From assembly GCA_040900375.1 (NCBI GenBank), contig JBBDZC010000018.1, positions 567-64,566 of the forward strand: a stretch of DNA of 64,000 nucleotides, in the 5' to 3' direction. Both the position numbers and the translations under genes were made by a program. The stretch comes from Candidatus Anderseniibacteriota bacterium. GTDB taxonomy: Bacteria; Patescibacteriota; Andersenbacteria; UBA10190. Positions 2,702-50,265 of this stretch are shown piece after piece (positions within the stretch are counted from its first letter, which is position 1; every line of letters begins with the position of its first letter). Under the pieces are notes generated by a model, which was not told where the DNA came from, ran no database searches, and saw only the letters and a program-made list of their open reading frames with translations.

Positions 2702-5700
2702 ATGCATCCGGTGTGGAGCTATCCTTTTAGGCATGCGCGGCTGGGGCGATTTCTCGTCAGTAGTTTGCTCGCTTTTTTATTGTCCTTCTCTCCGATCTTT
2801 CCGCTCATTACCTGGTATGGCATTGCCACGACCCTCTCGGTGATTGCGGCTACCTTAGCCCCCACACCCTCTCTCCTCGACGATGCTCGGGATAAACCAA
2901 CTCCACCATCATCTCTGCCCGTATCCCCTACTCCCTCACCGACGGTCGCCGAGCCACTCACGACGACGGTTGAACACATTTTAACTGAAGTGAGCGAAGC
3001 AGTGCCCGCTATCTCACTGGGAGATGAGACTAACGCTCCGGTGCACAGCCAGGTGGTGCTCCCGGAACTACGACAACAAGCCGAGCTGATACACTTACCC
3101 GTAACGGTTGTATCTGCCGCCGAGCTCCTCGTGCTCCCGGAACCCGATGTGCCCGCCACGGCCGATCTTACCTTTGCGCTCAAGGTCGAGTTGCCTCGTG
3201 AGTTAGTGCGTAGGCAAGGAGCGACAGCAGGAGCGGCCCCAGCGATTGAGGCGGCCGCAGAAGCGGTGCTCGAGACACCACCGCTTGAAGAACTACCGAC
3301 AGGTAGTGTGCCCCCGAGTGTGGCAGAAATTCTGACACCCAGCCCGAGTCCTTCTCCCTTCGACGATGTTCGGGGTAAACCAAGCCCGACACCCATCTCT
3401 TCTTTCACACCCTTGAGTGAACTTGATGGCGAAGCGAATGAATCTTTTCCGGCCGAGCCTTCGCCAGCGCCCTTTGATACTCCTCCTGTACCTTCCCCTT
3501 CACCGCTGGTTCGCCTCTGGCAGTTCTTGACGGCACATACCCCGACAGTCTCGGCGGCGCTCTTCCCTCCCGAGGAGGCGCCGGCAACTGCCGTAGCCGT
3601 CACGGTGACTGATCCGCTGGGCGAGCCGGTCACTATTATCCCTGTGATCACCGAGGAGGCTGGCCAGGCACTCGTACGCATCCCGCAGGCTCCCACTCAG
3701 TTTCGCCCAGGAAAATATCACCTGATGGTGAGCGTGGTTGAAGGCGACCATGTACTCCAAGCCGAGCAAGACTTCACCTGGGGTGTCCTGGCCTTAAATC
3801 TCAACCAATCAACGTATGAGCCGGGCGAGACCGCCAGTATTGGTATGGCAGTGTTAGATGATGCAGGGCATACACTCTGCGATGCCGATCTTACCTTGGT
3901 CATTACGGCGCCCTCGGGTGCAGTCACGACGCTTTCTACCGCCGAGCAGTCTATCACTACTTCCCCCACCTGCGTTGATCAAAGCGTGACCGATCTGCCC
4001 GATTATGCTACCAGCTACACACCGCAAGAGTTGGGCACCTACGCGCTCAAACTCACGGCGGTAACGGCCAACGGCACCCGGGAGATGCAGCAGTTCTTTA
4101 CAGTTGAGAGTGAGGCTCCCTACATAGTCAGCCGCCAGGGTAGCATGCGTATCTTTCCTTTAGCTGCCTATACTATGAAGGTCACTGTCACGGCCGCGCA
4201 AGACTTCCGGGGCAAGCTCACCGAAACTGTCCCCGGGAGCTTTGCTTTATCGGCGGCCACACTAACTAGGTCCGGGACTACCGAGCGCGGTAATTGGTCA
4301 CTCGACATTCATCCCGATGAGACAACTAAACGCCTTGTCTGGGACAATGTGGAGCTCTCGGCTGGGCAATCGGCGACACTTTCCTACACCTACGACGCGC
4401 CGGATATCAGTCCCGAGTTTTATTTATTAGGACCGCTCGAAGTAATCAGCAGCTCCGGCACCGATAACGACACGCCAGTCTGGCTCGAGCCGCGAGCCTG
4501 GCAGATAGCCGCCGACATCATCACCAATGGGGCTAATGCGATCGATGCGTTAGGGCAGTATGACGATAATCTTACGACACCAGGGCCGATTTACACCAAA
4601 GGGACAGGTCAAGACGCCCCCAATCGGTTGGGGTTGAATGCTCCTTGGTCTGACCCAGCGCTTGATAGTGTGAACAATCGTCTCTTTGTTCCAGACTCCA
4701 GTAACAACCGTGTCTTAGTCTACAACCTCAATGCGGATGATACGCTCATTGACCGCATTCCGGATAATGTCTTAGGCCAAGCTAATTTTTATACCAATGC
4801 ATCCGCCACGACGCAGGCGGGATTGAGCTTTCCTACCGGGCTGGCCTATGACAGTACCAACCAGCGCCTGTTTGTGGTAGATAGTGATAACAGCCGCGTG
4901 CTGGTGTTCGATGTGACGGCGATTACCGACGGCGAGAATGCGGTGAATGTATTGGGCCAAGCGAATTTTACTTCAAGCGGGCCAGCCACGACGCAGGCAG
5001 GGTTGAACTTCCCCCACAAAGCTGCATATGACAGTACTAATAGCCGGTTATTTGTGGCCGATAGTGGTAACAGCCGCGTGCTCGTGTTCGACGTCACCGC
5101 GATTACGAATGGTGAAAATGCGGTGAATATACTAGGGAAAACTAGTTTTACCTCGAGTCTCCCTGCAACCACGCAGTCGGGGATGAGCGATCCTATAGGG
5201 GTAGCGTATGACAGTACTAATAGTCGGTTGTTCGTGGCTGAAGAAGGCAACCACCGCGTTACGGTGTTCGATGTGACGGCGATTACTGATGGCGAGAATG
5301 CGGTGAATGTATTGGGCCAAGCGAATTTCACGTCGGCGGGCTCTGCCACCACCCAATCCGGGATGACCAGCCCCCGCGGGGTAGCCTACGACAGTACTAA
5401 TAGTCGGCTGTTTGTGCCTGAAAGGGGCAACCACCGCGTTACGGTGTTCGATGTGACGGCGATTACCGATGGCGAGAATGCGGTAAACGTACTGGGGCAA
5501 GCGAATTTCACCTCAAGTTCAAGCGCCACGACGCAGGCGGGGATGAGCAGTCCCCGCGGGGCAGCATACGACGCCACCAACAACCTGTTGTTTGTGACTG
5601 CTAGCGGTAACCACCGCATCACCGTCTATGACGTCACCGCGATTACCGATGGCGAGAATGCGGTAGACGCGTTAGGGCAGTATGATAATAGCTTAAGTGC

Positions 5701-8700
5701 CCCTGCTCCCATCTATACCAAAGGCAGCGCTCACAATGCGCCCAACAGATTAGGCATGAGTGTTACTCAAGGTGGGGTTATCTTCGATAGTACCAACGAT
5801 CGCCTCTTTGTCTCGGATTCTGGCAACGATCGTGTCTTGGTCTATAACCTTAATGCGAACGACACGCTCATTGACCGCATTCCCGATAACGTGTTGGGTC
5901 AAGCAAATTTCTATACGAATACTGGGGCCACGACGCAGGCAGGCCTCAATACCCCTCTTGGCCTAGCCTATGATAGTACCAACCAACGGCTATTCGTGAC
6001 TGATGCGAGTAATAACCGGGTGGTAATCTATGATGTCACCGCTATTACCGATGGCGAGAATGCCGTCAATGTGTTGGGGCAAGCAAACTTTACCACGGCG
6101 ACGGCCGCCACCACGCAAGCGGGAATGAGTAGCCCCCGCGGGGTAGCGTACGATAGCGCCAACCAACGATTATTCGTAGGCGATAGCACCAATAATCGTG
6201 TAGTGGTATTCGACGTCACCGCGATTACCGATGGCGAGAATGCGGTGAATGTATTGGGCCAAGCGAATTTTACTTCAAGCGGGGCAGCCACGACGCAAGC
6301 CGGAATGAACAATCCCCAGGGGTTGGCCTACGATAGTACTAACAGCCGGTTGTTTGTAGCTGACAGTAGTAACAACCGTGTCACGACGTTTGACGTCACC
6401 GCGATTACCGATGGCGAGAATGCGGCAAACGTGCTGGGGCAAACAAGCTTTACCGTAAGTACTGCCGCCACCACCCAGGCCGGGATGAGCACCCCCAGCG
6501 CGGCGGCTTACGATAGCACCAACAGCCGGTTATTTGTCAGCGCGACCGGCAATGACCGCGTGACGACGTATAATGTCGCGAGTATCACTAATGGCGAGAG
6601 TGCCGTGAATGTATTAGGTCAAGCTAATTTTACCTCAAGTGGAGAAGCCACTACTCAAGCGGGAATGGCTGATCCCCATGGGTTAGCCTACGACAGCACC
6701 AACAGCCGGTTATATGTAAATGATACTAATAACGATCGGATCATCGTTCATGATGCCGCTGATCCCACGATCACGTGGGACGGCGGGGGTACTGATGGCA
6801 CCTGTGGCGGTGGCGCCGGGGATGGCAATAAGTGGTCGTGTGCGGCGAACTGGAGCGGGGATGTTGTTCCCACTAGTGCTCATATCGCCACCTTCGATGG
6901 CACATCTACTAAAAACGCGACAATTGATGCCAACATTGACGTCTATGGTATTGACATTAATACGGGCTACACCGGGACCATTACCCAGGCCACGGGGGTA
7001 ACCGTCACGGTTGGTAGCGGAGGCTACGACCAAGCGGCGGGTACCTTTACGGGCAGTAATAGCGCCATTGACATCAATGGTGCCTGGGCGCTCTCGGGGG
7101 GGGCGTTTACAAGCACCAGCGGGGCACTCTCCGTCAGCGATGCTTTCACGATCTCGGGCGGGACGTTCACCCATAACTCGGGCACGGTGCAGTTCGATAC
7201 TACCGCCGCCACGATTACGCCTTCCACCGCGAGCTTCAACAATGTCTCGTTTACCAGCGCCGTAACAAAGACTATTGCTGCCAGCAACACTATAACGATA
7301 GTGGGCACGCTCACCCTCACCGACGGCAGCGTGAGCCAAACGACCATTCCGGCCACGGGCTCTATTGCCGCCCAGGGCGACATTACGCAAGCTTCCACGT
7401 TTGATGGTGGTACGGGCCGGCTGGAGATTACGGGGACGGCTACCCAGACTTTTACCGGCAATGCCACCACCACGGCGGGGAACCTACCTGACACCGAAAT
7501 TGACAAGAGCGGCGGCACCCTCACGCTCACCGGCACGATCCGGACTATTGGCCAGGGAGCCGGCGCCTGGACGTACACGACCGGAACACTTGATGCCGGC
7601 ACAAGCACGGTGGTAATGAATGGCGCAATGACTATCACGGGTTCGCATACGTTGAATAACGTCTCACTGCTGACGTCGGGAACGAGAACAATCGCCAACA
7701 ACAATACCCTCACCGTCACCGGCACCCTTACGCTCACCGATGGCTCGATCAATCAAACAACCATCCCGGCCACCGGCTCCATCGCTGCTCAAGGAAATAT
7801 CACGCAGGCGTCAACTTTTGATGGTGGTACGGGCCGGTTAGAGATTACGGGGAGTGCAGCGCAAACCTTCACGGGGAATGCCACGACCTCGGCCGGAAAT
7901 CTGCCAGACTTGGAGATTGACAAGAGCGCTGAAACGCTCACGCTCACCGGCACCATTCGTACGACTGGCCAGGGAGCTGATGCCTGGACGTACACCACCG
8001 GAACATTGGCTGCTGGCACCAGTACGGTGGTGATGGATGGAGCGATGACCATCACGGGTTCGCATACGTTGAATAACGTTTCACTGCTGACGTCGGGAAC
8101 CCGTACTGTTGCCTCTGGCACCACGCTCACAATCGTAGGCACTCTCACACTCACCGATGGGCAAATCAACACCGGCACCGTTGCCGCCCAGGGCAATATT
8201 ACGCAAGGCTCTGCGTTTGATGGTGGTACGGGCCGGCTGGAGATTACGGGGACGGCTACCCAGACCTTTACCGGCAATGCCACCACCACGGCGGGTAGTC
8301 TATCTCGCGTAGAGATTAACAAAAGCGGCGGAACACTGACACTCGCTGGCACGATTCGCACTAGTGGCCAAGGACCAGATGCCTGGACATACACAGCAGG
8401 GACTGTCGCCCCCGGCACGAGCACGGTAGTCTTTGACGGTGGAACAACCGTCACCGGCACGCAGACGTTCAACAACCTGGTAGTCCAAGGTTTCATGACG
8501 GTTGCCGACGGTAACACGCTGACGGTGACAGGTACCCTCACGCTCACCAGTGGGACCATTGTTCAAACGACAATTCCGGCCACGGGCTCTATTGCCGCCC
8601 AGGGCGACATTACGCAAGCTTCCACGTTTGGTGGTGGTACGGGCCGGCTGGAGATTACGGGAAGTGCGAATCAGACCTTTACCGGCAGTGCCGCCGACTC

Positions 8701-11700
8701 GACAGGGCTCCTCCCTAACCTCGAAATTGACAAGAGCGGCGGCACCCTCACGTTCACCGGCACGATCCGGACCGCTGTGGATTGGACATACACCGCTGGC
8801 ACACTCGACGCGACGACGAACGATTCGACGGTTATCTTTGGCGGGGCTTCGACGATCAACATCACTGGCTCGCACACGCTCGACAATGTGACTTTCGGCG
8901 ACAATTTCCAAGTGATCGTCAATATCGCTGATAACACGACGCTCACCATCGCCGGCACCCTCGCGCACACGAAGGCCCAAATCAATCAAACGACTGTCCC
9001 CGCCGCCGGGTCTCTTGCTGCGCAAGGCGATGTGACGGTTGGATCGGCTGCTCCCGGCGGGACTGCCGCCCTTACCTTCTCGGGAGGAAACGCGCAGACT
9101 TACACCGATAACGGCGGCACGAAGACGACAGGGACTGTTACTGTCAATAAGACGGCAGGGTCGGCCGTCACTCTCGCCACGGCCATGTCGTATACCGGCA
9201 CCGGCCAGGATCTCACCATTACCTCCGGCACGCTTGATCTCGCAGGTTTCAACCTCACCATCGCGGATGTCCTCACGGTCAACGGCGGCACCCTTACGGG
9301 GGAAACAGGCGCTGTTGATGTGAATGGCAGTGTCGTTTTGTCTTCCGGCACGCTCACCGCCCCCTCGGGCGCCTTCACTGTTGCCGGCGACTTCACCCAC
9401 AGTAGCGGCACCTTTACCCACAACTCTGGTACCCTCACCCTCGACGGCCCCGACCAAACCCTCGCGGGAGCCACCACCTTTCATAACTTAACCAAGACTG
9501 TCGCGACTGCTCGCACCTTAACCTTCCCGACTGGTTCAGCTAACAAGCAGACCATTGTGGGTACGCTGACCCTCCAAGGGGCATCAGGAGCCTTGCTCTC
9601 GCTGCGCTCGGCTTCCACCGGCACCCAGTGGCAGTTCGACCCTCAAGGCACCCGCACACTGTCCTTCTTAGACGTACAAGACAGCCACAATACCAATAGT
9701 ACGAGTATTGCCACGGCGGGCTTTAATATTACTGATAGTGGTAATAACACGGGCTGGTCGTTTAACCCTGAACCACCCTCTAACTTTGCGGGGACGGCCA
9801 TCTCCGGTACGGCCATCACCTGGACCTGGACGGATAACGCCACGGATGAAACGGGTTTCAAGCTCTTAGACGCGAGCGACACCGTAATTGCCACGATCAA
9901 CACTGCCAATGCGACTTCCTACACGGAAACCGGCCTCGCGGCTGGTACTGACTACAGTCGCAAACTGATTGCGTTCAATGGTGCTGGAGAATCAGCGGCC
10001 ACGAGTACAGTGACCGTCACCACGCTGACTTCACCTCCGACTGCCCCTGAACTGCGCTCACCGAGTAATGAAGCACTCTTAAACACCAATCTCCCCACGT
10101 TCTCCTGGAACAAGAGCACCGACAATGATGATGGGATGGCGACCTACACTCTCACTCTGGGCAGCCTGGTCCTCTCGGGGATTCCGGCGAGTGGCAGCAG
10201 TGCCTCTGACCCAGGGAGTAAAACCCACGTGGCTACCAGCTACACCGCCCAGTACTTTAATGAAAATGATGGCAATCCGGATAATGATTACATTGCCCTG
10301 ACGCTTAAAGACAGTGAGCGGGCGGATATCCCCCTTACTGACGGGGAACACTCGTGGTTCGTGACGGCGCACGATACGGCGGGGAACACCACCACCAGTG
10401 CCAGCCGCAGCTTCACGGTGGATACGCAGGCGCCCACGATTGGCAGTATCAGCTTTAGCCCGCCAGCGTTGTTGAGATCTGGCACCTACCGCTTACAGAG
10501 CGGCTCCCTGGCAGTCACCATCCCCCTCACCGATACCCAGGCCCTCCAGGAAGCCACCGTGACCTTTGCCCAGGCCCGCACGCTCTTTGGTCTCATCACC
10601 AGCTACACCACCCTCCAGAGTTCGACGTATGCCCTATCAGGGACTGCCCGGACGATCATCTTCGCTCCTCGGGAGGCCCTCACCGCGGGAGAGACGTACC
10701 GCATCAACATCACCGTCACTGATACCGCTGGGAACCGCAGGCTCCAGGACCTGACTCTCGTGGTGCTCACCCCCGAAGAGGCAGCCCGCGAGGCCGTTAT
10801 TGAACTCGATGCCGAGACGACGCCCATTGACATTATTATTGAGAAATTACGGGAGGCCTTACCGGATGCGCCCTTGAGTCTGCCGGATTTACAAGCGTCA
10901 GCGCTCCTGCGACGGGATCTGCAGGCCGAGCACTTCACCGCGTTCTGGCAGGGGTTACTAGGTAACCGCCTCATCGCCTGGGTACTCGATCACTTAGGTG
11001 GCTTTCCCCGTGCCCTCTTGGCAACTATTGATATCACCCAGAGCTTATGGGAGCGCTTATTGGCCCTCGCCATCCGGATAGCGGTGGCAGCCGGCACCAT
11101 GATTCGGGATACGAGCCTGGCGCTTGTCCATGGGGTCGTAGCAAGTGTTGATCGCGTCGCGCTCGAAACGACCACTGCCCAACGAATAGTCCGGCTACAG
11201 ACGGCCCGCGGGCTAGCACAGCTCGGCGCTCTCCTCGCCCAGCTGACGCCGACTCTTGGCGAACCGCTGCAGCAGGTGGGAGAAAGTTTAGCGCTGTCGC
11301 CGGATATAGGGATGGAGTATCGGGAGGAGCGCTTAACGACCCAGGCGCAGGTGAGTCGGATTAATACGCAATTACAGGCGGTGGGAAGCTTCTTCCGCGC
11401 CGGGTGGGAGACGGGTAGGGAGACGCGGGTGCGGACGGGACTCAAGAATCGGCAGGAATTGACACAAGGAACAGAACGGTTGCTGGGGCCGGTGGGGAGG
11501 TTGACAAAAACTCTGGCTCTTAAAACCCGAGCGACATACGAACTATGGCTGGATACTACCCCCACACATATTAGTAATGTCCGCGTGACCAAACTCACAC
11601 CGACGAGCGCGACCCTGGAATGGGATACTAACCACCTCGTCCGTTCCACTAAAGTTAACTACGGCACGACCACTAATTATAATCAGGAAGTTATTATCGA

Positions 11701-12100
11701 TGCTCTCGCTGATCACCATCGGGTCACTATCGCTAATCTTTTGCCTCGTACCACCTACTACTTTGAAGTTACTAATCAAGGCAGTAGAAACTATGTCTTC
11801 GACGCCTACTATACCTTAACCACACCCGCGCAGGATGAGCCAAGTCCACCGACGCCGCTGGCACCACAAGACGCCGTCGTTACTGCCAGCGAGCCGGTAT
11901 CGGTCTATGGTGAACCTGTGCCGACAGCCACCATAATTACAACACTATCTCCCGGCACTCGCCTGCGCGCACTCAATGAGCAGTTGGGGTGGATCTCGGT
12001 ACTATTGCCCAGTGGCCAAGAAGGCTGGCTGCAAGCGGATTATATTCAGTTGCAACTTCATGAGGGGGTGTCGGCTCAGTCTAACCACGATACTCTGTAG
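2702..12100 (+). CDS. Giant (3132 aa) cell-surface repeat protein / putative adhesin
   Basis: Single 9.4 kb ORF. The N-terminus has a hydrophobic signal/anchor (FLVSSLLAFLLSFSPIFPLITWYGIATTLSVIAATL). A Pro/Ser/Thr/Glu-rich linker follows, then MG/Ig-like segments. About 13 NHL-type repeats (YDSTNSRLFVADSGNSRVLVFDVTAITDGENAVNVLGQANFTSSG...) are arranged as two blocks, each preceded by ALGQYD(D/N). At least five ~145-aa Thr/Gly-rich repeats follow (TLTLTDGS.NQTTIPATGSIAAQG.ITQASTFDGGTGRLEITG...TFTGNATT.AGNLP..EIDKSGGTLTLTGTIRT). Two FN3-like segments (ISGTAITWTWTDNATDETGFKLL...; VRVTKLTPTSATLEWDTNH...YYFEVTN) and a C-terminal SH3b-like motif (TLSPGTRLRALNEQLGWISVLLPSGQEGWLQADYIQL) complete the architecture. 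Confidence 0.85.
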   Translation: MHPVWSYPFRHARLGRFLVSSLLAFLLSFSPIFPLITWYGIATTLSVIAATLAPTPSLLDDARDKPTPPSSLPVSPTPSPTVAEPLTTTVEHILTEVSEAVPAISLGDETNAPVHSQVVLPELRQQAELIHLPVTVVSAAELLVLPEPDVPATADLTFALKVELPRELVRRQGATAGAAPAIEAAAEAVLETPPLEELPTGSVPPSVAEILTPSPSPSPFDDVRGKPSPTPISSFTPLSELDGEANESFPAEPSPAPFDTPPVPSPSPLVRLWQFLTAHTPTVSAALFPPEEAPATAVAVTVTDPLGEPVTIIPVITEEAGQALVRIPQAPTQFRPGKYHLMVSVVEGDHVLQAEQDFTWGVLALNLNQSTYEPGETASIGMAVLDDAGHTLCDADLTLVITAPSGAVTTLSTAEQSITTSPTCVDQSVTDLPDYATSYTPQELGTYALKLTAVTANGTREMQQFFTVESEAPYIVSRQGSMRIFPLAAYTMKVTVTAAQDFRGKLTETVPGSFALSAATLTRSGTTERGNWSLDIHPDETTKRLVWDNVELSAGQSATLSYTYDAPDISPEFYLLGPLEVISSSGTDNDTPVWLEPRAWQIAADIITNGANAIDALGQYDDNLTTPGPIYTKGTGQDAPNRLGLNAPWSDPALDSVNNRLFVPDSSNNRVLVYNLNADDTLIDRIPDNVLGQANFYTNASATTQAGLSFPTGLAYDSTNQRLFVVDSDNSRVLVFDVTAITDGENAVNVLGQANFTSSGPATTQAGLNFPHKAAYDSTNSRLFVADSGNSRVLVFDVTAITNGENAVNILGKTSFTSSLPATTQSGMSDPIGVAYDSTNSRLFVAEEGNHRVTVFDVTAITDGENAVNVLGQANFTSAGSATTQSGMTSPRGVAYDSTNSRLFVPERGNHRVTVFDVTAITDGENAVNVLGQANFTSSSSATTQAGMSSPRGAAYDATNNLLFVTASGNHRITVYDVTAITDGENAVDALGQYDNSLSAPAPIYTKGSAHNAPNRLGMSVTQGGVIFDSTNDRLFVSDSGNDRVLVYNLNANDTLIDRIPDNVLGQANFYTNTGATTQAGLNTPLGLAYDSTNQRLFVTDASNNRVVIYDVTAITDGENAVNVLGQANFTTATAATTQAGMSSPRGVAYDSANQRLFVGDSTNNRVVVFDVTAITDGENAVNVLGQANFTSSGAATTQAGMNNPQGLAYDSTNSRLFVADSSNNRVTTFDVTAITDGENAANVLGQTSFTVSTAATTQAGMSTPSAAAYDSTNSRLFVSATGNDRVTTYNVASITNGESAVNVLGQANFTSSGEATTQAGMADPHGLAYDSTNSRLYVNDTNNDRIIVHDAADPTITWDGGGTDGTCGGGAGDGNKWSCAANWSGDVVPTSAHIATFDGTSTKNATIDANIDVYGIDINTGYTGTITQATGVTVTVGSGGYDQAAGTFTGSNSAIDINGAWALSGGAFTSTSGALSVSDAFTISGGTFTHNSGTVQFDTTAATITPSTASFNNVSFTSAVTKTIAASNTITIVGTLTLTDGSVSQTTIPATGSIAAQGDITQASTFDGGTGRLEITGTATQTFTGNATTTAGNLPDTEIDKSGGTLTLTGTIRTIGQGAGAWTYTTGTLDAGTSTVVMNGAMTITGSHTLNNVSLLTSGTRTIANNNTLTVTGTLTLTDGSINQTTIPATGSIAAQGNITQASTFDGGTGRLEITGSAAQTFTGNATTSAGNLPDLEIDKSAETLTLTGTIRTTGQGADAWTYTTGTLAAGTSTVVMDGAMTITGSHTLNNVSLLTSGTRTVASGTTLTIVGTLTLTDGQINTGTVAAQGNITQGSAFDGGTGRLEITGTATQTFTGNATTTAGSLSRVEINKSGGTLTLAGTIRTSGQGPDAWTYTAGTVAPGTSTVVFDGGTTVTGTQTFNNLVVQGFMTVADGNTLTVTGTLTLTSGTIVQTTIPATGSIAAQGDITQASTFGGGTGRLEITGSANQTFTGSAADSTGLLPNLEIDKSGGTLTFTGTIRTAVDWTYTAGTLDATTNDSTVIFGGASTINITGSHTLDNVTFGDNFQVIVNIADNTTLTIAGTLAHTKAQINQTTVPAAGSLAAQGDVTVGSAAPGGTAALTFSGGNAQTYTDNGGTKTTGTVTVNKTAGSAVTLATAMSYTGTGQDLTITSGTLDLAGFNLTIADVLTVNGGTLTGETGAVDVNGSVVLSSGTLTAPSGAFTVAGDFTHSSGTFTHNSGTLTLDGPDQTLAGATTFHNLTKTVATARTLTFPTGSANKQTIVGTLTLQGASGALLSLRSASTGTQWQFDPQGTRTLSFLDVQDSHNTNSTSIATAGFNITDSGNNTGWSFNPEPPSNFAGTAISGTAITWTWTDNATDETGFKLLDASDTVIATINTANATSYTETGLAAGTDYSRKLIAFNGAGESAATSTVTVTTLTSPPTAPELRSPSNEALLNTNLPTFSWNKSTDNDDGMATYTLTLGSLVLSGIPASGSSASDPGSKTHVATSYTAQYFNENDGNPDNDYIALTLKDSERADIPLTDGEHSWFVTAHDTAGNTTTSASRSFTVDTQAPTIGSISFSPPALLRSGTYRLQSGSLAVTIPLTDTQALQEATVTFAQARTLFGLITSYTTLQSSTYALSGTARTIIFAPREALTAGETYRINITVTDTAGNRRLQDLTLVVLTPEEAAREAVIELDAETTPIDIIIEKLREALPDAPLSLPDLQASALLRRDLQAEHFTAFWQGLLGNRLIAWVLDHLGGFPRALLATIDITQSLWERLLALAIRIAVAAGTMIRDTSLALVHGVVASVDRVALETTTAQRIVRLQTARGLAQLGALLAQLTPTLGEPLQQVGESLALSPDIGMEYREERLTTQAQVSRINTQLQAVGSFFRAGWETGRETRVRTGLKNRQELTQGTERLLGPVGRLTKTLALKTRATYELWLDTTPTHISNVRVTKLTPTSATLEWDTNHLVRSTKVNYGTTTNYNQEVIIDALADHHRVTIANLLPRTTYYFEVTNQGSRNYVFDAYYTLTTPAQDEPSPPTPLAPQDAVVTASEPVSVYGEPVPTATIITTLSPGTRLRALNEQLGWISVLLPSGQEGWLQADYIQLQLHEGVSAQSNHDTL
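4520..6770 (+). repeat. Intragenic tandem repeats (~180 nt, ~13 copies) encoding NHL/beta-propeller blades inside the giant gene
   Basis: DNA blocks such as gatgtgacggcgattaccgacggcgagaatgcggtgaatgtattgggccaagcgaatttt recur at about 4911, 5271, 5451, 6041, 6221, 6401 and elsewhere with few mismatches. The protein repeat is YDSTN.RLFV.D..N.RV.VFDVTAITDGENAVNVLGQANFTS...ATTQAGM. A higher-order duplication is marked by ALGQYD(D/N) at about 4550 and 5670. Confidence 0.8.
7250..8860 (+). repeat. Intragenic ~435-450 nt tandem repeats (4-5 copies) encoding Thr/Gly-rich beta-solenoid-like units
   Basis: Near-identical DNA segments: 7345-7432 versus 8574-8661 (~88 nt, 1 mismatch) and 7401-7480 versus 8215-8295 (~80 nt, 1 mismatch). 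More diverged copies lie near 7789 and 8100. Confidence 0.8.
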
Positions 12101-15682: not shown

Positions 15683-16822
15683 TTAATTTATACTCCCGAC
15701 TACAATTTCTGTGGCCTCGGGACGAGCGGGAACACTCTTCACCCAAAAAGGTGAGAATTGCACTTCCACTGACTCAACGCTCGGAAACTGTTGAAAATAC
15801 TCTTGCACCTCGGCGGCACTCCGACCGGCAAGGTTATCAGCGGAAAATAATGCTGGCCCCGCCTTACTGGCAAAGACGCCCGTTAGTGTTCCTTTAACAC
15901 GCGCTTCTCCCCGGGTAAAATCACTGCGCGTAATACTGACAGTAAATGATTCGGGTTTATACGACATAAATTCTTCATCGGGTTTTGGGGCCGAGCGCAG
16001 GGCGAGAAGAGTTAAACTCAACAGGTCGTTGTCATCAGGAAAAAAGCCGCGGGCTTTGATTTTTTTCTGCACAGTAAATTCAGTTGTTTTACTGCCGGCG
16101 GCGGCGGAAACACTCTCCTCCACTGTGGTCATAGTGACTAAATCTGGTCGGGTAAGCGCCCCCCCGGCCGCCGCCGTGAGTTCGCCCTCAATCCGCCCAC
16201 GCGCTTGTTTATCAACTTCTTCTTTGGCTCTGCTTATTTCTTCTTCGGTGAGCGGTGTCTCACCACTGACCCCACCACTGAAAGTAGTAGAGCTCTCGGC
16301 ATAGACGACCTTTTGCGCACTAGCGGGTAGCTTATCAATGATAAAGGTGCCGGGTGTGACGTTGCCGGGCAGTCCTTTTTCTTTCGCGGTCACGGCAACT
16401 GATACTTCCCCCAAGGGCGGAACAACCACAGCAGCATCAGTGAGAAAAAAGATGCCGGTGCCTTCGTGGCGTAAATGGGACTTTGGCAGCAGCCGCTGTT
16501 CTTCTGCCTGCTTATTAATTATTTTCACTGTGCCCCGCGCTAAGTCTTCAAATGTCTTTTGGCCCTCGCGCTTAAAAGTCTTAGTTTCCGTGACTTCCTT
16601 CTCCAGTAATTTGGCCGGCAAGATATAGCGGACAAAATCAGGTTCGTGACTAGTTTGCGACAAGGTAATTTCTTGCGTTACTTCCCGTTCATAGGTAGCG
16701 GGACGAACAATGATTGTTGCTTGCGGTAGGCGGGTATACGCCATACTAGCAAAAATCAGGCCAAGCAAAATTCCCGCGCTGGCGACTAGCGCCCGGCGAG
16801 GTATAGCAACGTGTGCAGGCAT
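15683..16822 (-). CDS. Hypothetical N-terminally membrane-anchored protein
   Basis: 379-aa ORF with an N-terminal transmembrane segment (ALVASAGILLGLIFASMAY) and no recognisable motif. Its ATG (16822-16820) lies inside the first terminal inverted repeat of the MITE-like element. Confidence 0.55.
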   Translation of the reverse strand: MPAHVAIPRRALVASAGILLGLIFASMAYTRLPQATIIVRPATYEREVTQEITLSQTSHEPDFVRYILPAKLLEKEVTETKTFKREGQKTFEDLARGTVKIINKQAEEQRLLPKSHLRHEGTGIFFLTDAAVVVPPLGEVSVAVTAKEKGLPGNVTPGTFIIDKLPASAQKVVYAESSTTFSGGVSGETPLTEEEISRAKEEVDKQARGRIEGELTAAAGGALTRPDLVTMTTVEESVSAAAGSKTTEFTVQKKIKARGFFPDDNDLLSLTLLALRSAPKPDEEFMSYKPESFTVSITRSDFTRGEARVKGTLTGVFASKAGPALFSADNLAGRSAAEVQEYFQQFPSVESVEVQFSPFWVKSVPARPEATEIVVGSIN

Positions 16823-24110: not shown

Positions 24111-25826
24111 ATGAAATACCCTCTCCCCCGCGACAGTTTTGCCCCGCCCTTTGCGCCAGATGCTTATACCCCTGCAGAAAAGTGGCAACTGGTCCCCTTT
24201 TTTTCTAATCTTGATCAGTCAGTATATGCGCCGCTCATTTTTTCCCCGGAAGTTATCGGCGCTTTATGTTCCCGCGCCAGCCGCGCCGAAGATGACTTGA
24301 GGACCATATTCTTGCGTGAATATGTGGCACCGTTTCTCGAGCCCGAGACAGCTGCTACCGAAGCGGCTGCTCATCATGGTAAAAGCCTCAAGGAATTCAT
24401 TAATTTTCTCCAGGCTTACCCCATTGAGGAAATTTTTTCCAATCCGCGGGCACGGTCATTCTACGCCAAGTGGCTGGCTCAATATGGTGATGATTCGATC
24501 GCCCAGATGGCGGGTATGCATCTCGTTTTTGCCTCGCTCTCGCAAGTTGCGATTAAACATTTCGAAGATCAACGAATTGGCTTAGCCCCGATTGAAAAAT
24601 CGACGCGCTATGTTGATTACTCAACTAAAATCAATGGCCGTTGGCGCTACTATACTGATCCCACTCTCCGAGAATTAGGCTTGGAGCAAGCGTATGAGAC
24701 CGCCATGGATGGTTTGTTTACAACCTACGGACAGCTCCTGCCCCGGCTCATAAGGTGGCTAAGTGAACGCTTCCCGGAGGAAAAACGGTCAGTGGTGGAA
24801 AAGAAGGCTTTTGATGTCTTGCGGGGCTTGCTACCAACCTCGACCCTTTCTCAAGTGGCCTTTTTCGGCAATGGCCAAGCTTACGAATATCTTGTCAGCC
24901 GCTCGGGACACCATCCCTTGGGAGAAATCCGCTGGGCTAGCGAACGTGCATATGAAGAACTGTATAAAGTTGCCCCTTCATTCTTACGCCGCATTAAAGA
25001 TCCTGAGAGTCAAGCACTCGTCAACTCATACCAAGAATATTTAAGCGGCAAGGGCGAGCGCTTGCGGCCTTTGGTGGATAGATTTACGGCTGCCCACCAA
25101 AAAGTAGCGCAGCAAACAAAGGAAGAGACTTCAGTTAAGCTCTTAGAGTACGACCTGGAGGGCGAAGCAAAAGTGATTACCGGCATGCTTTATGCTGCCC
25201 CGAATAATCATGCCAGTTGGTCGGATATATTTTCTCGAGTACGCGCGCTTAACGAGAGTGAGCGGCAGGTAGTCCTGAATGCTTACTTTATCGGCCGCAC
25301 GCAACGTTGGCAAAAGGTTGGGCGCGCCCTCGAAAATATCTTTGTCCGCTTTGAAATCATGATGAATATTGGTGCCTGGCGTGATTTACACCGTCATCGC
25401 ATGCTCACCCAGCAACGGCAGTACTTTTCCTGTATGCATGGATATGACGTGCCGCCAGAGCTGATGAGCGCGGGCCTAGCGGATGAGTTTACAGAGGCAA
25501 TAGAACGGGTGGAGCGCGTGCATCAACACATCGCCGAATACGACCTGGACCTGGCCCAGTATGCGGTGACCATGGCCCACCGGGTACGATTCATGCAGTG
25601 GACTAACTTGCGGGAATGTTTCTGGGAGATTGAGTTACGCACGATTCCCGAGGGGCATCCGGACTACCGGAGAATCGAGCAAGAGAAATTTCGTTTGCTC
25701 CAGAAAGTTTATCCCCTGCTGGCAGAGCGCATGCATGTCAATTTAGACGAGTATAACTTTGCCCGCCGCGGTCAGGAAGAAAAAATCCAGGCTAAGCTCA
25801 AAGAGTTGACCAAGGTTAACGCCTGA
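24111..25826 (+). CDS. thyX: FAD-dependent thymidylate synthase, tandem two-domain ThyX type
   Basis: The C-terminal half carries WRDLHRHRML (RHR motif) and MQWTNLRECFWEIELRT (ThyX NLR...WEI block). The N-terminal half aligns to the same fold (HLVFASLSQVAIKHFEDQRIG...STRYVDYS) but lacks the RHR motif. At 571 aa it matches known duplicated ThyX proteins. Confidence 0.6.
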   Translation: MKYPLPRDSFAPPFAPDAYTPAEKWQLVPFFSNLDQSVYAPLIFSPEVIGALCSRASRAEDDLRTIFLREYVAPFLEPETAATEAAAHHGKSLKEFINFLQAYPIEEIFSNPRARSFYAKWLAQYGDDSIAQMAGMHLVFASLSQVAIKHFEDQRIGLAPIEKSTRYVDYSTKINGRWRYYTDPTLRELGLEQAYETAMDGLFTTYGQLLPRLIRWLSERFPEEKRSVVEKKAFDVLRGLLPTSTLSQVAFFGNGQAYEYLVSRSGHHPLGEIRWASERAYEELYKVAPSFLRRIKDPESQALVNSYQEYLSGKGERLRPLVDRFTAAHQKVAQQTKEETSVKLLEYDLEGEAKVITGMLYAAPNNHASWSDIFSRVRALNESERQVVLNAYFIGRTQRWQKVGRALENIFVRFEIMMNIGAWRDLHRHRMLTQQRQYFSCMHGYDVPPELMSAGLADEFTEAIERVERVHQHIAEYDLDLAQYAVTMAHRVRFMQWTNLRECFWEIELRTIPEGHPDYRRIEQEKFRLLQKVYPLLAERMHVNLDEYNFARRGQEEKIQAKLKELTKVNA

Positions 25827-28785: not shown

Positions 28786-29454
28786 CTAACTGGCGATGAG
28801 CCGAGGTTTAACATACTGCCAGACTTCTTCATGAAGATCTTCACGTGTTCGCTCTTGGCCCTGGCCATCGACACCGGCAATTGTAATCCAACCCTGTACC
28901 GCAGCAACTTTAAGATAGGCTGCCCGGATCGCGGTCAGTTTTTCTTTGGTCTCGAAGAAATCTTTATTCTTTTCCTTCAAGCGCCGCAGTGAGACAGCCA
29001 CAGGGGTATCAAGAAAAAGAACTAGGTCGGGTTGCGGCAGAGTGGGTTGACCCGTAAAGCAGAGCCACCAAATCCAATCATACATTTCTTGCCACTCCTG
29101 GCCGCGTAACCCCATGGTCTGGTACGCAAACGCGCTGGTACAAAAACGGTCCGAGACAACGAGCTGGCGGCCCGATTTTTCACTGGTGTGAGCAGTGATG
29201 TCCTCGGCACGCGAGAAGAAATCCTGAATGTATAACAACGCCTGCTCCCGGCGAGAGAAGGGTTTTTTATTCTTATGGAGCAGGAACTTATCGTAGATCA
29301 GGCGCCCGGTTGCCCGATCTTCTTGGGGAAAATGGAGCGAGAGCGGCTGATATTTTTCTTGCTGGAGGCGGCGCACGAGCCAGTCCGTCTGGGTTTGGCT
29401 ACCGCCCGCATCCAGGGCTTCAATAACGATGAAGGGAGAAGGTCGCTTAGGCAT
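28786..29454 (-). CDS. Thymidylate kinase-family paralog with degenerate Walker A (Lys replaced)
   Basis: Tmk fold is indicated by FIVIEALDAGGSQTQ (consensus IVIEGLDGSGKSTQ) and VVSDRFCTSAFAYQ (DRY..S.AYQ). The P-loop Lys and Ser/Thr are replaced (GGSQT). The gene overlaps the upstream tmk stop by 8 nt. Confidence 0.55.
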   Translation of the reverse strand: MPKRPSPFIVIEALDAGGSQTQTDWLVRRLQQEKYQPLSLHFPQEDRATGRLIYDKFLLHKNKKPFSRREQALLYIQDFFSRAEDITAHTSEKSGRQLVVSDRFCTSAFAYQTMGLRGQEWQEMYDWIWWLCFTGQPTLPQPDLVLFLDTPVAVSLRRLKEKNKDFFETKEKLTAIRAAYLKVAAVQGWITIAGVDGQGQERTREDLHEEVWQYVKPRLIAS

Positions 29455-30175
29455 AGGCTTGGAGTAACTGCGGAAATTTAAGACGCAGGTTTTCCCAAAC
29501 TAATTCTGCCACGTCATCAACGTTCAATAGCTCCTCTCCCTCCACACAGAGGATCCGGAGAAACCGCGCGGGATCTTGCTGGCACAGGAGATCATATTCA
29601 TTGTAGAGTCGTTGTTGAATTTCCAGGTGATCGGTATACTCATCCTTGTCTTGCATCTTTTCTTTTCGTTTCTCTAAAAGACCAACAGAGATCTCGGGCA
29701 GTATATCTAAAAAAAGTGAAATGTGTTCCAAGGGCATCTGTTGCTCTTGATATTCATAGCGGCTAACAGCGGCTTGAATTTTATCCCGAAAGAGTTCGGT
29801 TTCCTGCACGTCCAATCCCTCAATGGTCATAAAGGCAATACTGCTGGCTACGTACCGATCATAGATGACTATTTCTCCTAATTTGAGGGCCTGTAGAACT
29901 TCTGCGCGGTGCTCGGCACGATTGTGTGCAAATAGGCGCATTTTTTCCGGCCACGGTATCGCCTGCCAGCGCCCATCTTTATTCTGGAGCTTTTGCTTTA
30001 ATTTTTGGCCGCTGGAAGTGGTATAATCGGGACTTTCAAAATGATGAACAACGTGCCCCATAAATCGCAGGCGCCGGAGGAGATGCTGAACCTGGGTATG
30101 CTTGCCGGACGAATCAAGGCCATCAAAAGCAATCAGCAGGCCAGTGGGTTTAGGCGCAGGACACATACATTCCAC
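29447..30175 (-). CDS. tmk: Thymidylate (dTMP) kinase
   Basis: LIAFDGLDSSGKHTQ (intact Walker A), IYDRYVASSIAFM (DRY motif), and a LID-like LEKRKEKMQDKDEYTDHLE segment. The true start is probably an internal Met (MCPAPK...). Confidence 0.7.
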   Translation of the reverse strand: MECMCPAPKPTGLLIAFDGLDSSGKHTQVQHLLRRLRFMGHVVHHFESPDYTTSSGQKLKQKLQNKDGRWQAIPWPEKMRLFAHNRAEHRAEVLQALKLGEIVIYDRYVASSIAFMTIEGLDVQETELFRDKIQAAVSRYEYQEQQMPLEHISLFLDILPEISVGLLEKRKEKMQDKDEYTDHLEIQQRLYNEYDLLCQQDPARFLRILCVEGEELLNVDDVAELVWENLRLKFPQLLQAYA

Positions 30176-46207: not shown

Positions 46208-46657
46208 TTAGTCGGTGAAACACTCACCGGGCCCTAAGCGCAAGCGCCGTTCTTCCTGAAAGGCGTTACCGTCAGGAAATCGGCCGGTGACCTGTACGCA
46301 AGGGGTAATACCATCACTCGGCAGATACTTTGCTTCTCCTTCGTAGCCCGCAGTGCTTGTATCTGGGACAGACCCATACTCGACTGCTCCTGTAAGCGGG
46401 GTAGATTCTTGGGCAAATAATGATAACTCATACAAGCCTTGTTCTAACCCCGAATTAGCGGCATAGAAAGCGCGCTCGGAAGAGATCGCGTCCGTGGTAG
46501 CGCGAATTTGGCGAGCTAAGATAATGCTAAAAAGGATGGCAGAGGAAACAATAATCGCGAGCATAATGAGCGACATGTAAATCGCAATATCGCCGCGCTG
46601 CTGGTGACCCGCGGGTTGCTTAAGTCTCCGAGTGGTTAGGGAGGATAGCATAGTCAT
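46208..46657 (-). CDS. PilX-like minor pilin / pilus-associated protein
   Basis: 149 aa. N-terminus RGDIAIYMSLIMLAIIVSSAILFSIILA resembles a PilX N-terminal domain. Last gene of the pilus operon. Confidence 0.45.
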   Translation of the reverse strand: MTMLSSLTTRRLKQPAGHQQRGDIAIYMSLIMLAIIVSSAILFSIILARQIRATTDAISSERAFYAANSGLEQGLYELSLFAQESTPLTGAVEYGSVPDTSTAGYEGEAKYLPSDGITPCVQVTGRFPDGNAFQEERRLRLGPGECFTD

Positions 46658-47256
46658 TACGGCGGGCTTAAAAAGGGAATAACTTGCCGCGAAGTAACCG
46701 AGCTCTGGAGGGTGACCGTGTGGTCTGATTTTTTTCGGGAAGTAGCTGCCACACTGATGGTCACAAAGCCTTGGTTGAGAAGCTTGTTGTCGGGGTCTAC
46801 ATTTGCCGCTCGCGCGATAAAGGTGAGCGTATCAATCTGCGTGTCGCGACTCACTAAAGAGTCATACGAGCTGTAGACTATCAGGCTACAGTCTTCTTCA
46901 GGCGGCACGTTTTCCGCCGCCCGTGCGAGCGTGCGTGCGGCACTATCATGGCGATAACTGACGCAGGTACCATTTTGGTTACGGAAAAACAGGAATGAAC
47001 TTGTTCCCGTAAAGGTATTGCCGTAACCGGTACGTACTTCCCGGTTGAGCAACTCTAAAGCAAATCGTAGGTCTGCCTGAATTTTTTGTTCACCAATGTG
47101 ACGGCGCTCGGTAAACACAAATTGGGAGAAAATACCCATAATTATCAACAGCAAGAGCGAAAAGATGCCAATCGCGACAATAATCTCAATAAGTGTATAA
47201 CCACGGCTATGCGCCAGGGGCAAACGAGAGGTAGCGAAGGTATCCATACAGCACAT
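46657..47256 (-). CDS. Prepilin-type minor pilin (PilW-like)
   Basis: Class III signal RGYTLIEIIVAIGIFSLLLLII (G|YTLIE with Glu at +5). The ORF-track start at 47304 overlaps the upstream gene; the internal Met at about 47256 or 47247 is more likely. Confidence 0.6.
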   Translation of the reverse strand: MCCMDTFATSRLPLAHSRGYTLIEIIVAIGIFSLLLLIIMGIFSQFVFTERRHIGEQKIQADLRFALELLNREVRTGYGNTFTGTSSFLFFRNQNGTCVSYRHDSAARTLARAAENVPPEEDCSLIVYSSYDSLVSRDTQIDTLTFIARAANVDPDNKLLNQGFVTISVAATSRKKSDHTVTLQSSVTSRQVIPFLSPP

Positions 47257-47257
47257 A

Positions 47258-47812
47258 TCAAGGCTTATACCAGTTATATAACACTTCTTTGACTTCGGCT
47301 TCACGCGTCAGGCCCCGGCTTTGCCACGTGACTTTCGCACTGATTGTAATCAAGGGGGGCGTACTATTCTGCGCGGTACAATCAACACTGATTAATCGGC
47401 TATAGGGCGTCAGGGTGGCCGCACTCGGATGGTGGGTCCACAGATTGGTATCGGTTATCCGCAACCGCTGCTGGGCTAAGCTCGGGTTAGCGGTGATAAA
47501 CAACGTGGTCACGGGATCATGGTCAATCGTAAATTGGTAGTCGCTACTCGAAGCCTCGTCACAAATATCCTTCGTCCACGCTTCCCCCGAAAACCAATTC
47601 GTATCACGGTAGGCTTGGACTAACTCCAGCCCCTCGCGCGCCAGATTAGCGGCAATAAATCTTTCTTGGGCAATGCCGACAATGTTCTGGGTGCGCGATA
47701 CCAGTTGCACTATCGCGAGGGATCCGCCCACGAGTAAAAAGGTAGCAATTAACACGCCGAGGAGAGACATGCCGCGTTGTAACTTAATTAATTGGCCAGA
47801 CCACGTCAGCAT
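47258..47812 (-). CDS. Minor pilin-like protein (PilV-like, atypical prepilin motif)
   Basis: QRGMSLLGVLIATFLLVGGSLAIVQLV is a hydrophobic N-terminal helix after an RG motif but lacks Glu at +5. 184 aa. Confidence 0.45.
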   Translation of the reverse strand: MLTWSGQLIKLQRGMSLLGVLIATFLLVGGSLAIVQLVSRTQNIVGIAQERFIAANLAREGLELVQAYRDTNWFSGEAWTKDICDEASSSDYQFTIDHDPVTTLFITANPSLAQQRLRITDTNLWTHHPSAATLTPYSRLISVDCTAQNSTPPLITISAKVTWQSRGLTREAEVKEVLYNWYKP

Positions 47813-47813
47813 A

Positions 47814-48338
47814 TTATTCTCGTTCTAATTGACCGTAGGGATACACTGCTAAACGGACGATTGTAGTGCCTAGTTTGAGTTCGAAGCGACCCGGGTTTTT
47901 AACGGCACCATCAACCAATAATTCAATTGTTGGCGGCTGCCCCAAAAATAAGAAGCTTTTGTCTCCCGTCGCGACTACCCCCGCCGGTAACTCTTCCTGT
48001 TGAATAACATAATCAATCCCGGGAGAATACTGCTGGTCGGCAGCATCATCACCAGTATCAGCAAATAACAAAAGCGTCTGACCATCAATAAAGACGCCGA
48101 CGTCGGAGCAGCGGGCGGGTTCCCCTGGATTATCCAGAAGACAGTCTGGATCACGCTCTTCTTGAAGGGCTCGTTTTTGGGCATCACGAAGGGTAAATTC
48201 AATTTTTTGTTGCGCTAATAACAAGGCTTGACTATCGCGGGTTGAAGGAAAAGCCACAGTTAGAATGGTAATCATAATACCAATGATCACGACGGTGACT
48301 ACTACTTCAAGTAAAGTAAATCCTGAACTTGCCGGCAT
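47814..48338 (-). CDS. Prepilin-type pseudopilin (GspH/FimT-like)
   Basis: SGFTLLEVVVTVVIIGIMITIL is a canonical G|FTLLE prepilin cleavage/methylation motif. 174 aa. Confidence 0.7.
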   Translation of the reverse strand: MPASSGFTLLEVVVTVVIIGIMITILTVAFPSTRDSQALLLAQQKIEFTLRDAQKRALQEERDPDCLLDNPGEPARCSDVGVFIDGQTLLLFADTGDDAADQQYSPGIDYVIQQEELPAGVVATGDKSFLFLGQPPTIELLVDGAVKNPGRFELKLGTTIVRLAVYPYGQLERE

Positions 48339-48434
48339 CTCTTTAAGTGTACCTTAGTGTTGTCACAATTTACACGCCCACCCCTTCAGCTGCTATCCTT
48401 GAGTAAGGTGTGCGGAAGCGAACTTTGGTATTCC

Positions 48435-49238
48435 TTAGACACCCCACAGGAGCAAAAAAAATCGTGTGGGCAACTGGGGGACAAGTAACACGAGGATAGC
48501 GGCGCCAGCCAAGAATGGCCCAAACGGTATGGCTGTCTTCATTGTACTGTGGCCGCGGGTAAGCAGCGCGATACCCACAAGACCACCGATTGTAAAAGCC
48601 AGAAAAAGAACCATCACGGTGGCCGTGACACCAAACAAAGCGCCGAGGGGAATAAGTAATTTGATGTCCCCCAGGCCTATTCCCTGACCGCGAGTAATGA
48701 GCCAGAGAGAGAAAAGAAAACCCGCGCCAATGACTATCCCGCCGACGATGTCCCACGGCAGGAGCGTTGGTTGGAGTAATATTAGCGTCACACAGAAAAC
48801 ACTTAAGACAATAAGATACTGATCAGGCAAAAGAAATGTCGCACGATCAACAAATGCCAACACCAGTAAACAGGCAACAATGCCGAGAGTGACGAGACTG
48901 GCGACCATGCTGGTAATGGTGCTGGGAAAAGAACTGAAGATGACAACCGCGGCCACCCCCATAGCAAATTCGACGAGCGGATACTGCAAGGATATAGCAG
49001 CACCACAACGCTGGCAGCGGCCTCTAAGTAAGATAAATGAGAGGAGCGGCACCAGCTCCCACCAACGGAGTGTCTGCTGGCACTCTGGACAATATGACCG
49101 CGCGGGCTCGACCGCGCGGGTTGATGAAGCCGCTTTGTGTTTAATGTATCGCAAGATCACGACATTGAGAAAACTGCCAAGCAGCGTCCCGAGAATAAAA
49201 ATAAGCGGGGTGACTACCGTAATTTCCGGCCAGGCCAT
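48435..49238 (-). CDS. pilD: Prepilin peptidase (A24 family)
   Basis: GSFLNVVILRY, the Zn-binding CPECQQTL...WELVPLLSFILLRGRCQRCGAAIS..YPLVE, and a second catalytic Asp region (GLGDIKLL). 267 aa. Confidence 0.9.
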   Translation of the reverse strand: MAWPEITVVTPLIFILGTLLGSFLNVVILRYIKHKAASSTRAVEPARSYCPECQQTLRWWELVPLLSFILLRGRCQRCGAAISLQYPLVEFAMGVAAVVIFSSFPSTITSMVASLVTLGIVACLLVLAFVDRATFLLPDQYLIVLSVFCVTLILLQPTLLPWDIVGGIVIGAGFLFSLWLITRGQGIGLGDIKLLIPLGALFGVTATVMVLFLAFTIGGLVGIALLTRGHSTMKTAIPFGPFLAGAAILVLLVPQLPTRFFLLLWGV

Positions 49239-49245
49239 ACACTAC

Positions 49246-49728: not shown

Positions 49729-49757
49729 TTTTATATCGTATCACAAAGTACTGCAGC

Positions 49758-49787
49758 AAAACACTCGCCGATTGCTGGCGAGTGTTT
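49758..49787 (-). terminator. Strong hairpin terminator/attenuator between the two pilin genes
   Basis: Perfect 11-bp stem aaacactcgcc / ggcgagtgttt with a 7-nt loop. On the minus strand it is followed by TTTTGCTGCAG. Confidence 0.55.
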
Positions 49788-49812
49788 CGTTAACAGCTGT
49801 TAGTATGACAGG

Positions 49813-50262: not shown

Positions 50263-50265
50263 ACA

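Follow-up and report, generated by a model that had tools for sequence, protein, structure and literature searches.

A giant modular protein of an Andersenbacteria genome, a probable adhesin, with a predicted twelve-blade NHL insertion between a conserved base and a beta-helix

The analysed window, a 64,000-nucleotide (nt) stretch of contig JBBDZC010000018.1 from Candidatus Anderseniibacteriota (assembly GCA_040900375.1), carries at 2702-12100 on the forward strand a single unbroken open reading frame (ORF) with an ATG start, encoding 3132 amino acids (aa) plus a stop codon and taking up 14.7% of the window. The identical protein is held at NCBI as MEX1997858.1, from a 77-kb contig of a Candidatus Andersenbacteria metagenome-assembled genome (MAG), under the automatically assigned name "lactonase family protein" ("beta-propeller fold lactonase family protein"). 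[quoted passage not shown] By sequence, the protein is a fusion of two widespread, large and uncharacterised CPR families, a giant-protein scaffold and a double NHL propeller. The parts were delimited as follows.

2702-12100, forward strand: whole ORF, 3132 aa plus stop codon, identical to NCBI MEX1997858.1
2702-2857, forward strand: predicted signal-anchor, aa 1-52, in which a short, positively charged tail with 3 Arg and without acidic residues precedes a hydrophobic stretch of about 36 aa
2858-3586, forward strand: linker, aa 53-295, of low complexity, rich in Pro, Ala, Ser, Thr and Glu
3587-4522, forward strand: N-module, aa 296-607, three tandem beta-sandwich (Ig/MG-like) domains in 312 aa
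4523-5641, forward strand: NHL propeller 1, aa 608-980, six blades
5642-6763, forward strand: NHL propeller 2, aa 981-1354, six blades, a duplicate of propeller 1
6764-7336, forward strand: start of the beta-helix, aa 1355-1545, a conserved 'ITWDGGGTDGTCGGGAGDGNKWSC' cap (Cys 1368 and 1380) plus a partial repeat, placed by junction comparison with the relative P0002
7337-9391, forward strand: five 139-aa Thr/Gly-rich repeats, aa 1546-2230, inferred coils of a right-handed parallel beta-helix at about 20 aa per coil
9392-9757, forward strand: last coils and C-terminal cap, aa 2231-2352 (LSLRS..G.QW...R....LDVQDS.N....DSGNNTGW), with an AlphaFold2 (AF2) predicted local distance difference test score (pLDDT) of 83-97
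9767-10027, forward strand: FN3 domain, aa 2356-2442, Pfam match, AF2 pLDDT 93-97
10028-10771, forward strand: two Big_13 Ig-like domains, aa 2443-2690, Pfam Big_13 at E 6.6e-14 in two stretches
10772-11557, forward strand: helical region, aa 2691-2952, about 260 aa rich in Leu, Ala and Arg, modelled by AF2 as long helices at pLDDT 35-72
11558-11836, forward strand: second FN3 domain, aa 2953-3045, Pfam Pur_ac_phosph_N/fn3 and PDB FN3 matches, pLDDT 84-94
11852-12055, forward strand: SH3b (SH3_3) domain, aa 3051-3118, Pfam SH3_3 (PF08239) at aa 3066-3116, 30.9 bits against a cutoff of 27

A first-pass annotation made from the letters alone had described a gene covering about 15% of the window in a small, compact genome and had listed an N-terminal membrane anchor, a Pro/Ser/Thr-rich stalk, two blocks of roughly six NHL blades, five Thr/Gly-rich solenoid-like repeats of about 145 aa, two FN3-like modules and a C-terminal SH3b-like motif. 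Each of these parts was recovered, domain searches and models gave propeller, solenoid and FN3 folds and an SH3b domain scoring above its cutoff, and the guess at a small, compact genome is right, the organism being a CPR bacterium; the repeats kept their count and their solenoid character, as a beta-helix, but measure 139 aa. The N-module, the Big_13 pair and the helical region had been missed.

The propellers were identified by the Pfam NHL model (PF01436), which scored 163 bits against a cutoff of 20 over nine stretches (E 3.2e-49). An iterated hidden Markov model (HMM) of the blade resolved exactly 12 units, each about 60 aa long and arranged as two six-blade blocks (aa 607-980 and 981-1354), both of which open with one shared 72-aa variant blade and keep the same internal blade order; six blades were assigned to each predicted propeller. 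Compared with solved propellers, the first block matched SOQ1 (2.8e-15), NHLRC2 (7.7e-14), Thin (4.8e-12) and TRIM71 (1.3e-7). The pair as a 748-aa unit had 3859 matches at E≤1e-10 among the candidates scored, the best being CPR proteins of 800-1300 aa with 45-60% identity over 99-100% of the 748 aa. Exactly 12 blades were present in 105 of the top 120 matches, and a hydrophobic N-terminus in 91 of the 111 of them that start with Met. In these stand-alone proteins about 31 residues precede the first blade, and behind the last one comes a tail of about 245 aa, in which, by a count from the table of the same 120 matches, about 22 carry PG_binding_1, 12 SLH and 5 SH3_3. The 12-blade unit is, by sequence, a widespread stand-alone secreted CPR protein that often has wall-binding domains.

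The scaffold has a close counterpart in P0002 (MEX1997651.1), a 4631-aa protein of Andersenbacteria that shares the anchor, linker and N-module (42% identity over aa 9-607), the beta-helix cap, and the tail of FN3, Ig, helical, FN3 and SH3b-like parts (56% identity over aa 2356-3117). P0002 lacks the NHL propellers, has a beta-helix region of about 3100 aa with other repeat types, and carries one extra FN3. It runs from 'WQIAADAV' into 'ITWDGGGTDGTCGGG' without a break, whereas in the window protein exactly aa 608-1356 separate the two motifs. Both junctions keep the reading frame, and the insert is without the signal peptide and tail of the stand-alone genes. In this comparison the propellers are a clean insertion between N-module and beta-helix. 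The accessions MEX1997858.1 and MEX1997651.1 are 207 apart in one series, and from this spacing alone P0002 very probably comes from the same MAG and is a paralog in the same genome; a second scaffold gene was searched for within the 64-kb window and none was found. The combination has no counterpart among the 174 N-module proteins sampled including the window protein, the NHL block being present in 0 of the 173 others, which bears out the first-pass view that it lies outside any named family. That annotation had overlooked the fusion of two families, the probable same-genome paralog and a module shared with DPANN archaea.

The module in question is the N-module, the most conserved part of the protein. 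Its family signature is a unit of about 300 aa with FTWGVLA(L/I)N, a Cys pair, PDY, RIYP, PD(I/V)SPEFYLLGP and WQIA.D, following an N-terminal transmembrane segment in very long proteins; the window protein has every one of these features, including the columns invariant in a 29-sequence alignment, among them the Cys pair C393 and C424. The AF2 model built from that alignment has a pLDDT of 89.9 and a predicted template-modelling score (pTM) of 0.85. No Pfam or NCBIfam model covers the module, the only sign being a sub-threshold MG2 match (aa 370-458, 29.9 bits against a cutoff of 32.8), and a PDB sequence search with it returned nothing significant. Foldseek matched it to integrin legs, to the MG arrays of C3, C5 and A2M, and to Gram-positive pilins. 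With template-modelling scores (TM-scores) of only 0.2-0.33, and with integrin legs and pilins as good a match as the MG arrays, the likeness was taken as generic, and the modelled module is best described as a generic stalk-type array of beta-sandwiches.

A full HMMER pass with the N-module over 1.84 billion representatives gave 1999 proteins at E≤1e-3, of which 1303 reach E≤1e-30. Members reach 7732 aa and carry up to four copies of the module, with a median length of about 2100 aa in the sample. A genome scan, for which a 6-sequence alignment was used as the 29-sequence version was too divergent, gave 235 confirmed loci, found in CPR (Saccharibacteria, Parcubacteria, Uhr-, Falkow-, Moran-, Peregrini- and Andersenbacteria, WWE3) and in DPANN-type archaea (Woesearchaeota, Nanoarchaeota, Altiarchaeota). 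Several of the loci (L008, L010, L014, L015, L025 and others) lie in third-party MAGs labelled Gammaproteobacteria, Pseudomonadales or Methanosarcinales; these labels are doubtful, and either labels or bins cannot be relied on or members of the family exist outside CPR and DPANN. The region behind the module varies between proteins and consists of several kinds of beta-helix or of LamG lectin domains, as in a 2932-aa N-module protein of another Andersenbacteria genome (L024:1313-10111), which has four Laminin_G_3 (ConA-like lectin) domains and adjoins polA. Separately, in precomputed annotation two N-module proteins (P0009 and P0019) carry Pfam HTH_17 (PF12728) ahead of the transmembrane segment, and the N-terminal sequence of P0007 is similar; to judge from sequence, such proteins would join a cytoplasmic DNA-binding domain to a giant surface protein.

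Behind the propellers, the repeat region contains a partial unit (aa 1462-1544) ahead of the five full repeats, with partial units flanking them on both sides. It shows periods of 2, about 7, about 19.7 and 139 residues, which fit a 20-residue coil made up of three strands. AF2 modelled the end of the region (aa about 2175-2345) at pLDDT 80-95 as three short strands per coil in stacked coils, and fold searches matched this model to known right-handed parallel beta-helices, namely the shafts of autotransporters and other adhesins and phage tailspikes; sequence searches of the PDB and NCBIfam with the beta-helix gave nothing significant. The whole repeat region of about 950 aa is predicted to be one right-handed parallel beta-helix. 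Its C-terminal cap recurs in 24 sampled giant proteins.

In the tail, the FN3 assignment is carried by scores above the PF00041 cutoff together with an FN3 fold, and the AF2 beta-sandwiches of the Big_13 pair are of low to medium confidence. The helical region has no match in Pfam, NCBIfam or the PDB and is common only to P0002, P0003, P0043 and the metagenome loci L080-L082, being conserved in the few proteins that share the tail; it may serve in oligomerisation or in interaction with membrane or wall, both candidate roles. A transmembrane segment in this region was considered and rejected, hydropathy staying below 1.6. AF2 modelled the SH3_3 domain as a small all-beta domain (beta-barrel) at pLDDT 85-94, while multi-domain fold searches listed no SH3 match. 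SH3b domains are of a type that targets peptidoglycan in characterised proteins, wall binding being established for some only. The complete tail of FN3, Big_13, helical, FN3 and SH3b parts was found only in P0002, partly in P0003, and in P0043 and three metagenome contigs. A word-index homolog search with the last 444 aa returned one fragment and missed the query's own protein, and is therefore weak on absence; scanning metagenomes with single-sequence patterns gave nothing, and an alignment-based rescan gave the three full tails. An M16-family peptidase gene follows the giant gene bearing the FN3-helical-FN3-SH3b tail in two of these contigs (L080:5448-6854 and L081:3904-5181), as against dnaE in the window, so there is no conserved operon partner.

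At the other end, the sole strongly hydrophobic stretch of the protein is aa 14-50, behind a tail of charge +3; the Kyte-Doolittle average peaks at 2.09 over aa 17-37 and elsewhere stays below 1.6 except for a marginal stretch at aa 127-145. The anchor segment is kept in P0002. The linker is composed of 18.5% Pro, 12% Ala and about 9% each of Ser, Thr and Glu, has no Pfam match, and among the sampled relatives is similar only to that of P0002.

On balance, the protein is probably a modular fibre that an episymbiotic CPR bacterium carries outside the cell, anchored in its membrane, and most likely an adhesin. Its exposure at the surface, the order of its parts relative to the cell, ligand binding by the propellers and SH3b domain, and adhesion itself are read from the architecture. 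Extracellular character is suggested by the presence of only four Cys, in two conserved pairs, and by domain types typical of secreted and surface proteins. The signal-anchor would fix the protein in the cytoplasmic membrane in type II orientation (N-in/C-out), and the Pro-rich linker of about 240 aa would span the wall. The three-beta-sandwich base would then stand above the wall, followed by the two six-bladed propellers as putative binding platforms and by the beta-helix as a rigid shaft, estimated at about 20 nm with 4.8 Å per coil. Five Ig/FN3 spacers and the helical region would lie further outward, with FN3 and SH3b at the far end as a possible wall-binding tip. The protein probably arose by insertion of a whole 12-blade NHL unit, in itself a wall-associated secreted protein common in CPR, into a giant-protein scaffold between base and beta-helix. 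Adhesion would be the most economical function, given a beta-helix of the adhesin and tailspike type, propellers and SH3b as binding domains, and an episymbiotic lifestyle. The organism makes peptidoglycan (a Mur ligase is encoded in the window) and has type IV pili. For CPR bacteria, giant membrane proteins have been proposed to serve in host attachment (PMC8080830), and a Saccharibacterium cannot grow epibiotically without its surface glycan-binding proteins (PMC10633639); by analogy, attachment would agree with both the architecture and these proposals.

Several points weigh against this picture. The propellers, as putative binders, sit near the membrane-proximal end and not at the tip, which is unusual for adhesins, and an SH3b domain binding the cell's own wall could make the protein a tethered envelope component instead of an adhesin. 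The hydrophobic N-terminus of about 36 aa has internal prolines, so that a hairpin or a cleaved signal peptide are possible alternatives to a signal-anchor. The confident AF2 model covers the last 170 aa or so of the beta-helix, the remainder following from repeat homology and periodicity, and the helical region is unexplained and modelled at low confidence.

The main rival makes the protein an envelope scaffold tethered at both ends, by its N-terminal transmembrane segment in the membrane and by SH3b on its own peptidoglycan, forming a wall-associated or S-layer-like coat with the propellers working in the wall zone. The domain order, with the propellers near the membrane anchor, would suit this arrangement, as would the peptidoglycan synthesis encoded by the organism, the signal peptides of the stand-alone NHL proteins, and the own-wall retention domains (PG_binding_1, SLH, SH3_3) carried by about a third of the closest of them. 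A rigid beta-helix of about 950 aa with five Ig/FN3 spacers is, however, the design of a projecting fibre, the lectin-like payloads swapped in by scaffold relatives suggest outward recognition, and P0003 is without the SH3b end, so that double anchoring is not general for the scaffold. We consider a double-tethered scaffold unlikely, though worth keeping in view.

A surface-displayed enzyme, for example one with lactonase or quorum-quenching activity, as the database name implies, is improbable. Three Pfam models, Lactonase at 64.7 bits, Arylesterase at 78.7 bits and SdiA-regulated, do score above their cutoffs; all presumably belong to the same beta-propeller superfamily (Pfam clan) as NHL, and cross-matching among such related models is the simplest explanation of the Lactonase match. 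The NHL model scores far better than any other (163 bits, E 3e-49), the blocks have six blades apiece as against the seven of PF10282, the NCBIfam equivalogs fail badly (6-phosphogluconolactonase NF008258 at 47.6 bits against 370, ScyF at 62.6 against 350), and the nearest solved relatives, SOQ1, NHLRC2, Thin and TRIM71, are non-catalytic NHL binding domains. The deposited name is probably wrong.

An alpha-2-macroglobulin-like protease trap, a role suggested for two Vampirococcus giant proteins with A2M domains (PMC8080830), would find some encouragement in the weak MG2 match and the Foldseek matches to the C3, C5 and A2M arrays, but that match falls below its cutoff, the TM-scores are low and shared equally by integrin legs and pilins, the protein has four Cys in all and lacks the CxEQ motif of thioester proteins, and neither a thioester nor a bait-region nor a receptor-binding domain was detected; the idea is largely refuted by the missing thioester module and very improbable. 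Equally improbable is an assembly artefact, a chimeric or repeat-collapsed contig joining an NHL gene to a giant-protein gene: the MAG is of short-read type, the gene is repeat-rich and above its neighbours in GC content at third codon positions (GC3), and the NHL unit is normally a separate gene, yet the ORF runs over 9.4 kb without stops, the in-frame insert is without the signal peptide and tail of stand-alone genes and is flanked by the exact conserved junction motifs, and the DNA repeats inside the gene (periods 180 nt and 417 nt) share only 60-77% identity, and long exact repeats that could cause collapse or expansion are absent, so repeat collapse is unlikely. Three known routes of surface display were also examined and rejected. 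For an autotransporter or two-partner secretion (TPS), Pfam gave no barrel or TPS domain at E≤1, Fil_haemagg (E 1.7) and PATR (E 0.12) being all that was seen; for a sortase-anchored LPXTG adhesin, LP.[TSA]G is absent throughout and the C-terminus is hydrophilic; and for an RTX or type I secreted adhesin, there is no GG.G.D motif.

Beyond the adhesin assignment for this one protein, the N-module might be the common mounting base of a very large, unnamed superfamily of giant surface fibres shared by CPR and DPANN, with swapped payloads setting partner specificity. This wider idea is tentative; the payloads seen are NHL double propellers, LamG lectins and different beta-helices. If it is true, this genome would show payload swapping directly, in two paralogs with the same base and FN3-SH3b tail, one with a captured wall-associated NHL protein.

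The neighbours of the giant gene are ordinary chromosomal genes: dnaE begins 57 nt downstream and is followed by genes for ThrRS, MiaA, GatB, a Mur ligase, GyrB and PheST. Upstream, the start codon is preceded by an AT-rich spacer of 123 nt with a TATAAT sequence. Rfam and tRNA scans of the window found nothing connected with the giant gene. GC3 of the gene is 0.53-0.70, with the peak in the beta-helix and FN3-Ig parts, and is 0.49-0.57 in the comparison set of dnaE, ThrRS, GatB, GyrB, PilB and ClpB; the raised value could reflect codon choice in Thr/Gly/Ala-rich repeats or a different origin.

Elsewhere in the window, a complete type IV pilus cluster lies on the reverse strand at 46657-59203, in which at least three pilin-like ORFs carry N_methyl motifs and are joined by a prepilin peptidase, PilC, a PilT-like ATPase, PilB and PilO/PilN/PilM. 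Inside it sits a PMT_2-type glycosyltransferase (50399-51889), which might glycosylate pilins or Ser/Thr/Pro-rich surface proteins. Two thymidylate-kinase paralogs of 222 and 242 aa are adjacent in tandem at 28786-30175 on the reverse strand, and a ThyX-type thymidylate synthase at 24111-25826 on the forward strand is unusually long at 571 aa, its two Thy1 stretches suggesting an internal duplication or fusion. Between dnaE and ThrRS, a 379-aa ORF on the reverse strand (15683-16822) has a weak Baseplate_J match (20.6 bits against a cutoff of 21.1, E 3e-4) and could be a remnant of a phage or contractile system, or a chance match.

How CPR and DPANN organisms recognise and hold their hosts is largely unknown, and beyond type IV pili the candidates are surface proteins of large size and poor annotation. 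As a class, the giant surface proteins of CPR are already recognised, and the present sequence was already public; what is new is the dissection of the fusion, the probable paralog within the genome with a different middle, and the cross-domain, unmodelled N-module. The gene offers a worked example with a conserved base and tail, a predicted rigid beta-helix shaft and an apparently captured binding unit, and points to two large uncharacterised families to be defined, the 12-blade NHL wall proteins and the scaffold with the N-module. It also allows correction of the misleading "lactonase family protein" name, which thousands of CPR proteins probably bear. As long as binding partners are to be found, the practical gain is modest. 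This is an architectural variant and no new mechanism, useful for annotation and as a source of experimental targets.

Among known proteins, the stand-alone 12-blade NHL proteins (such as P0192 and P0237; "peptidoglycan-binding protein", Candidatus Pacebacteria) have the same 2 x 6 unit, down to the 72-aa variant blade at its start. Each is a secreted protein of its own, with a signal peptide and a tail in which PG_binding_1, SLH or SH3_3 is often present, whereas the unit in the window is an internal insert in a 3132-aa protein. Teneurins offer an analogy only: as proposed for the window protein, they have type II membrane orientation and Ig-like domains, behind which come an NHL propeller and a large shell or shaft rich in beta structure, but they have one propeller and a YD-repeat shell where the window protein has a predicted parallel beta-helix, and no homology is claimed outside the NHL fold. 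The beta-helical adhesins (the autotransporters Vag8, pertactin and Hap, TpsA/EtpA, and the Lactobacillus reuteri SRRP) have about 10% sequence identity to the window protein, which is without an autotransporter beta-barrel, TPS domain or LPXTG motif and is predicted to be anchored by its N-terminal transmembrane segment; CPR cells are reported to lack an outer membrane. Closest in kind are the Vampirococcus lugosii giants, the ten longest proteins of that organism (PMC8080830), and the Southlakia epibionticum glycan binders (PMC10633639). They were compared by description, as both papers give domain lists only, in which neither the three-sandwich module nor the 12-blade NHL insertion nor the FN3-SH3b tail is described, and the function of the Vampirococcus giants is likewise a proposal, as for the window protein. 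On that description they share with it the type of organism, the size class, the N-terminal anchoring and the FN3, Ig and MG-like domains.

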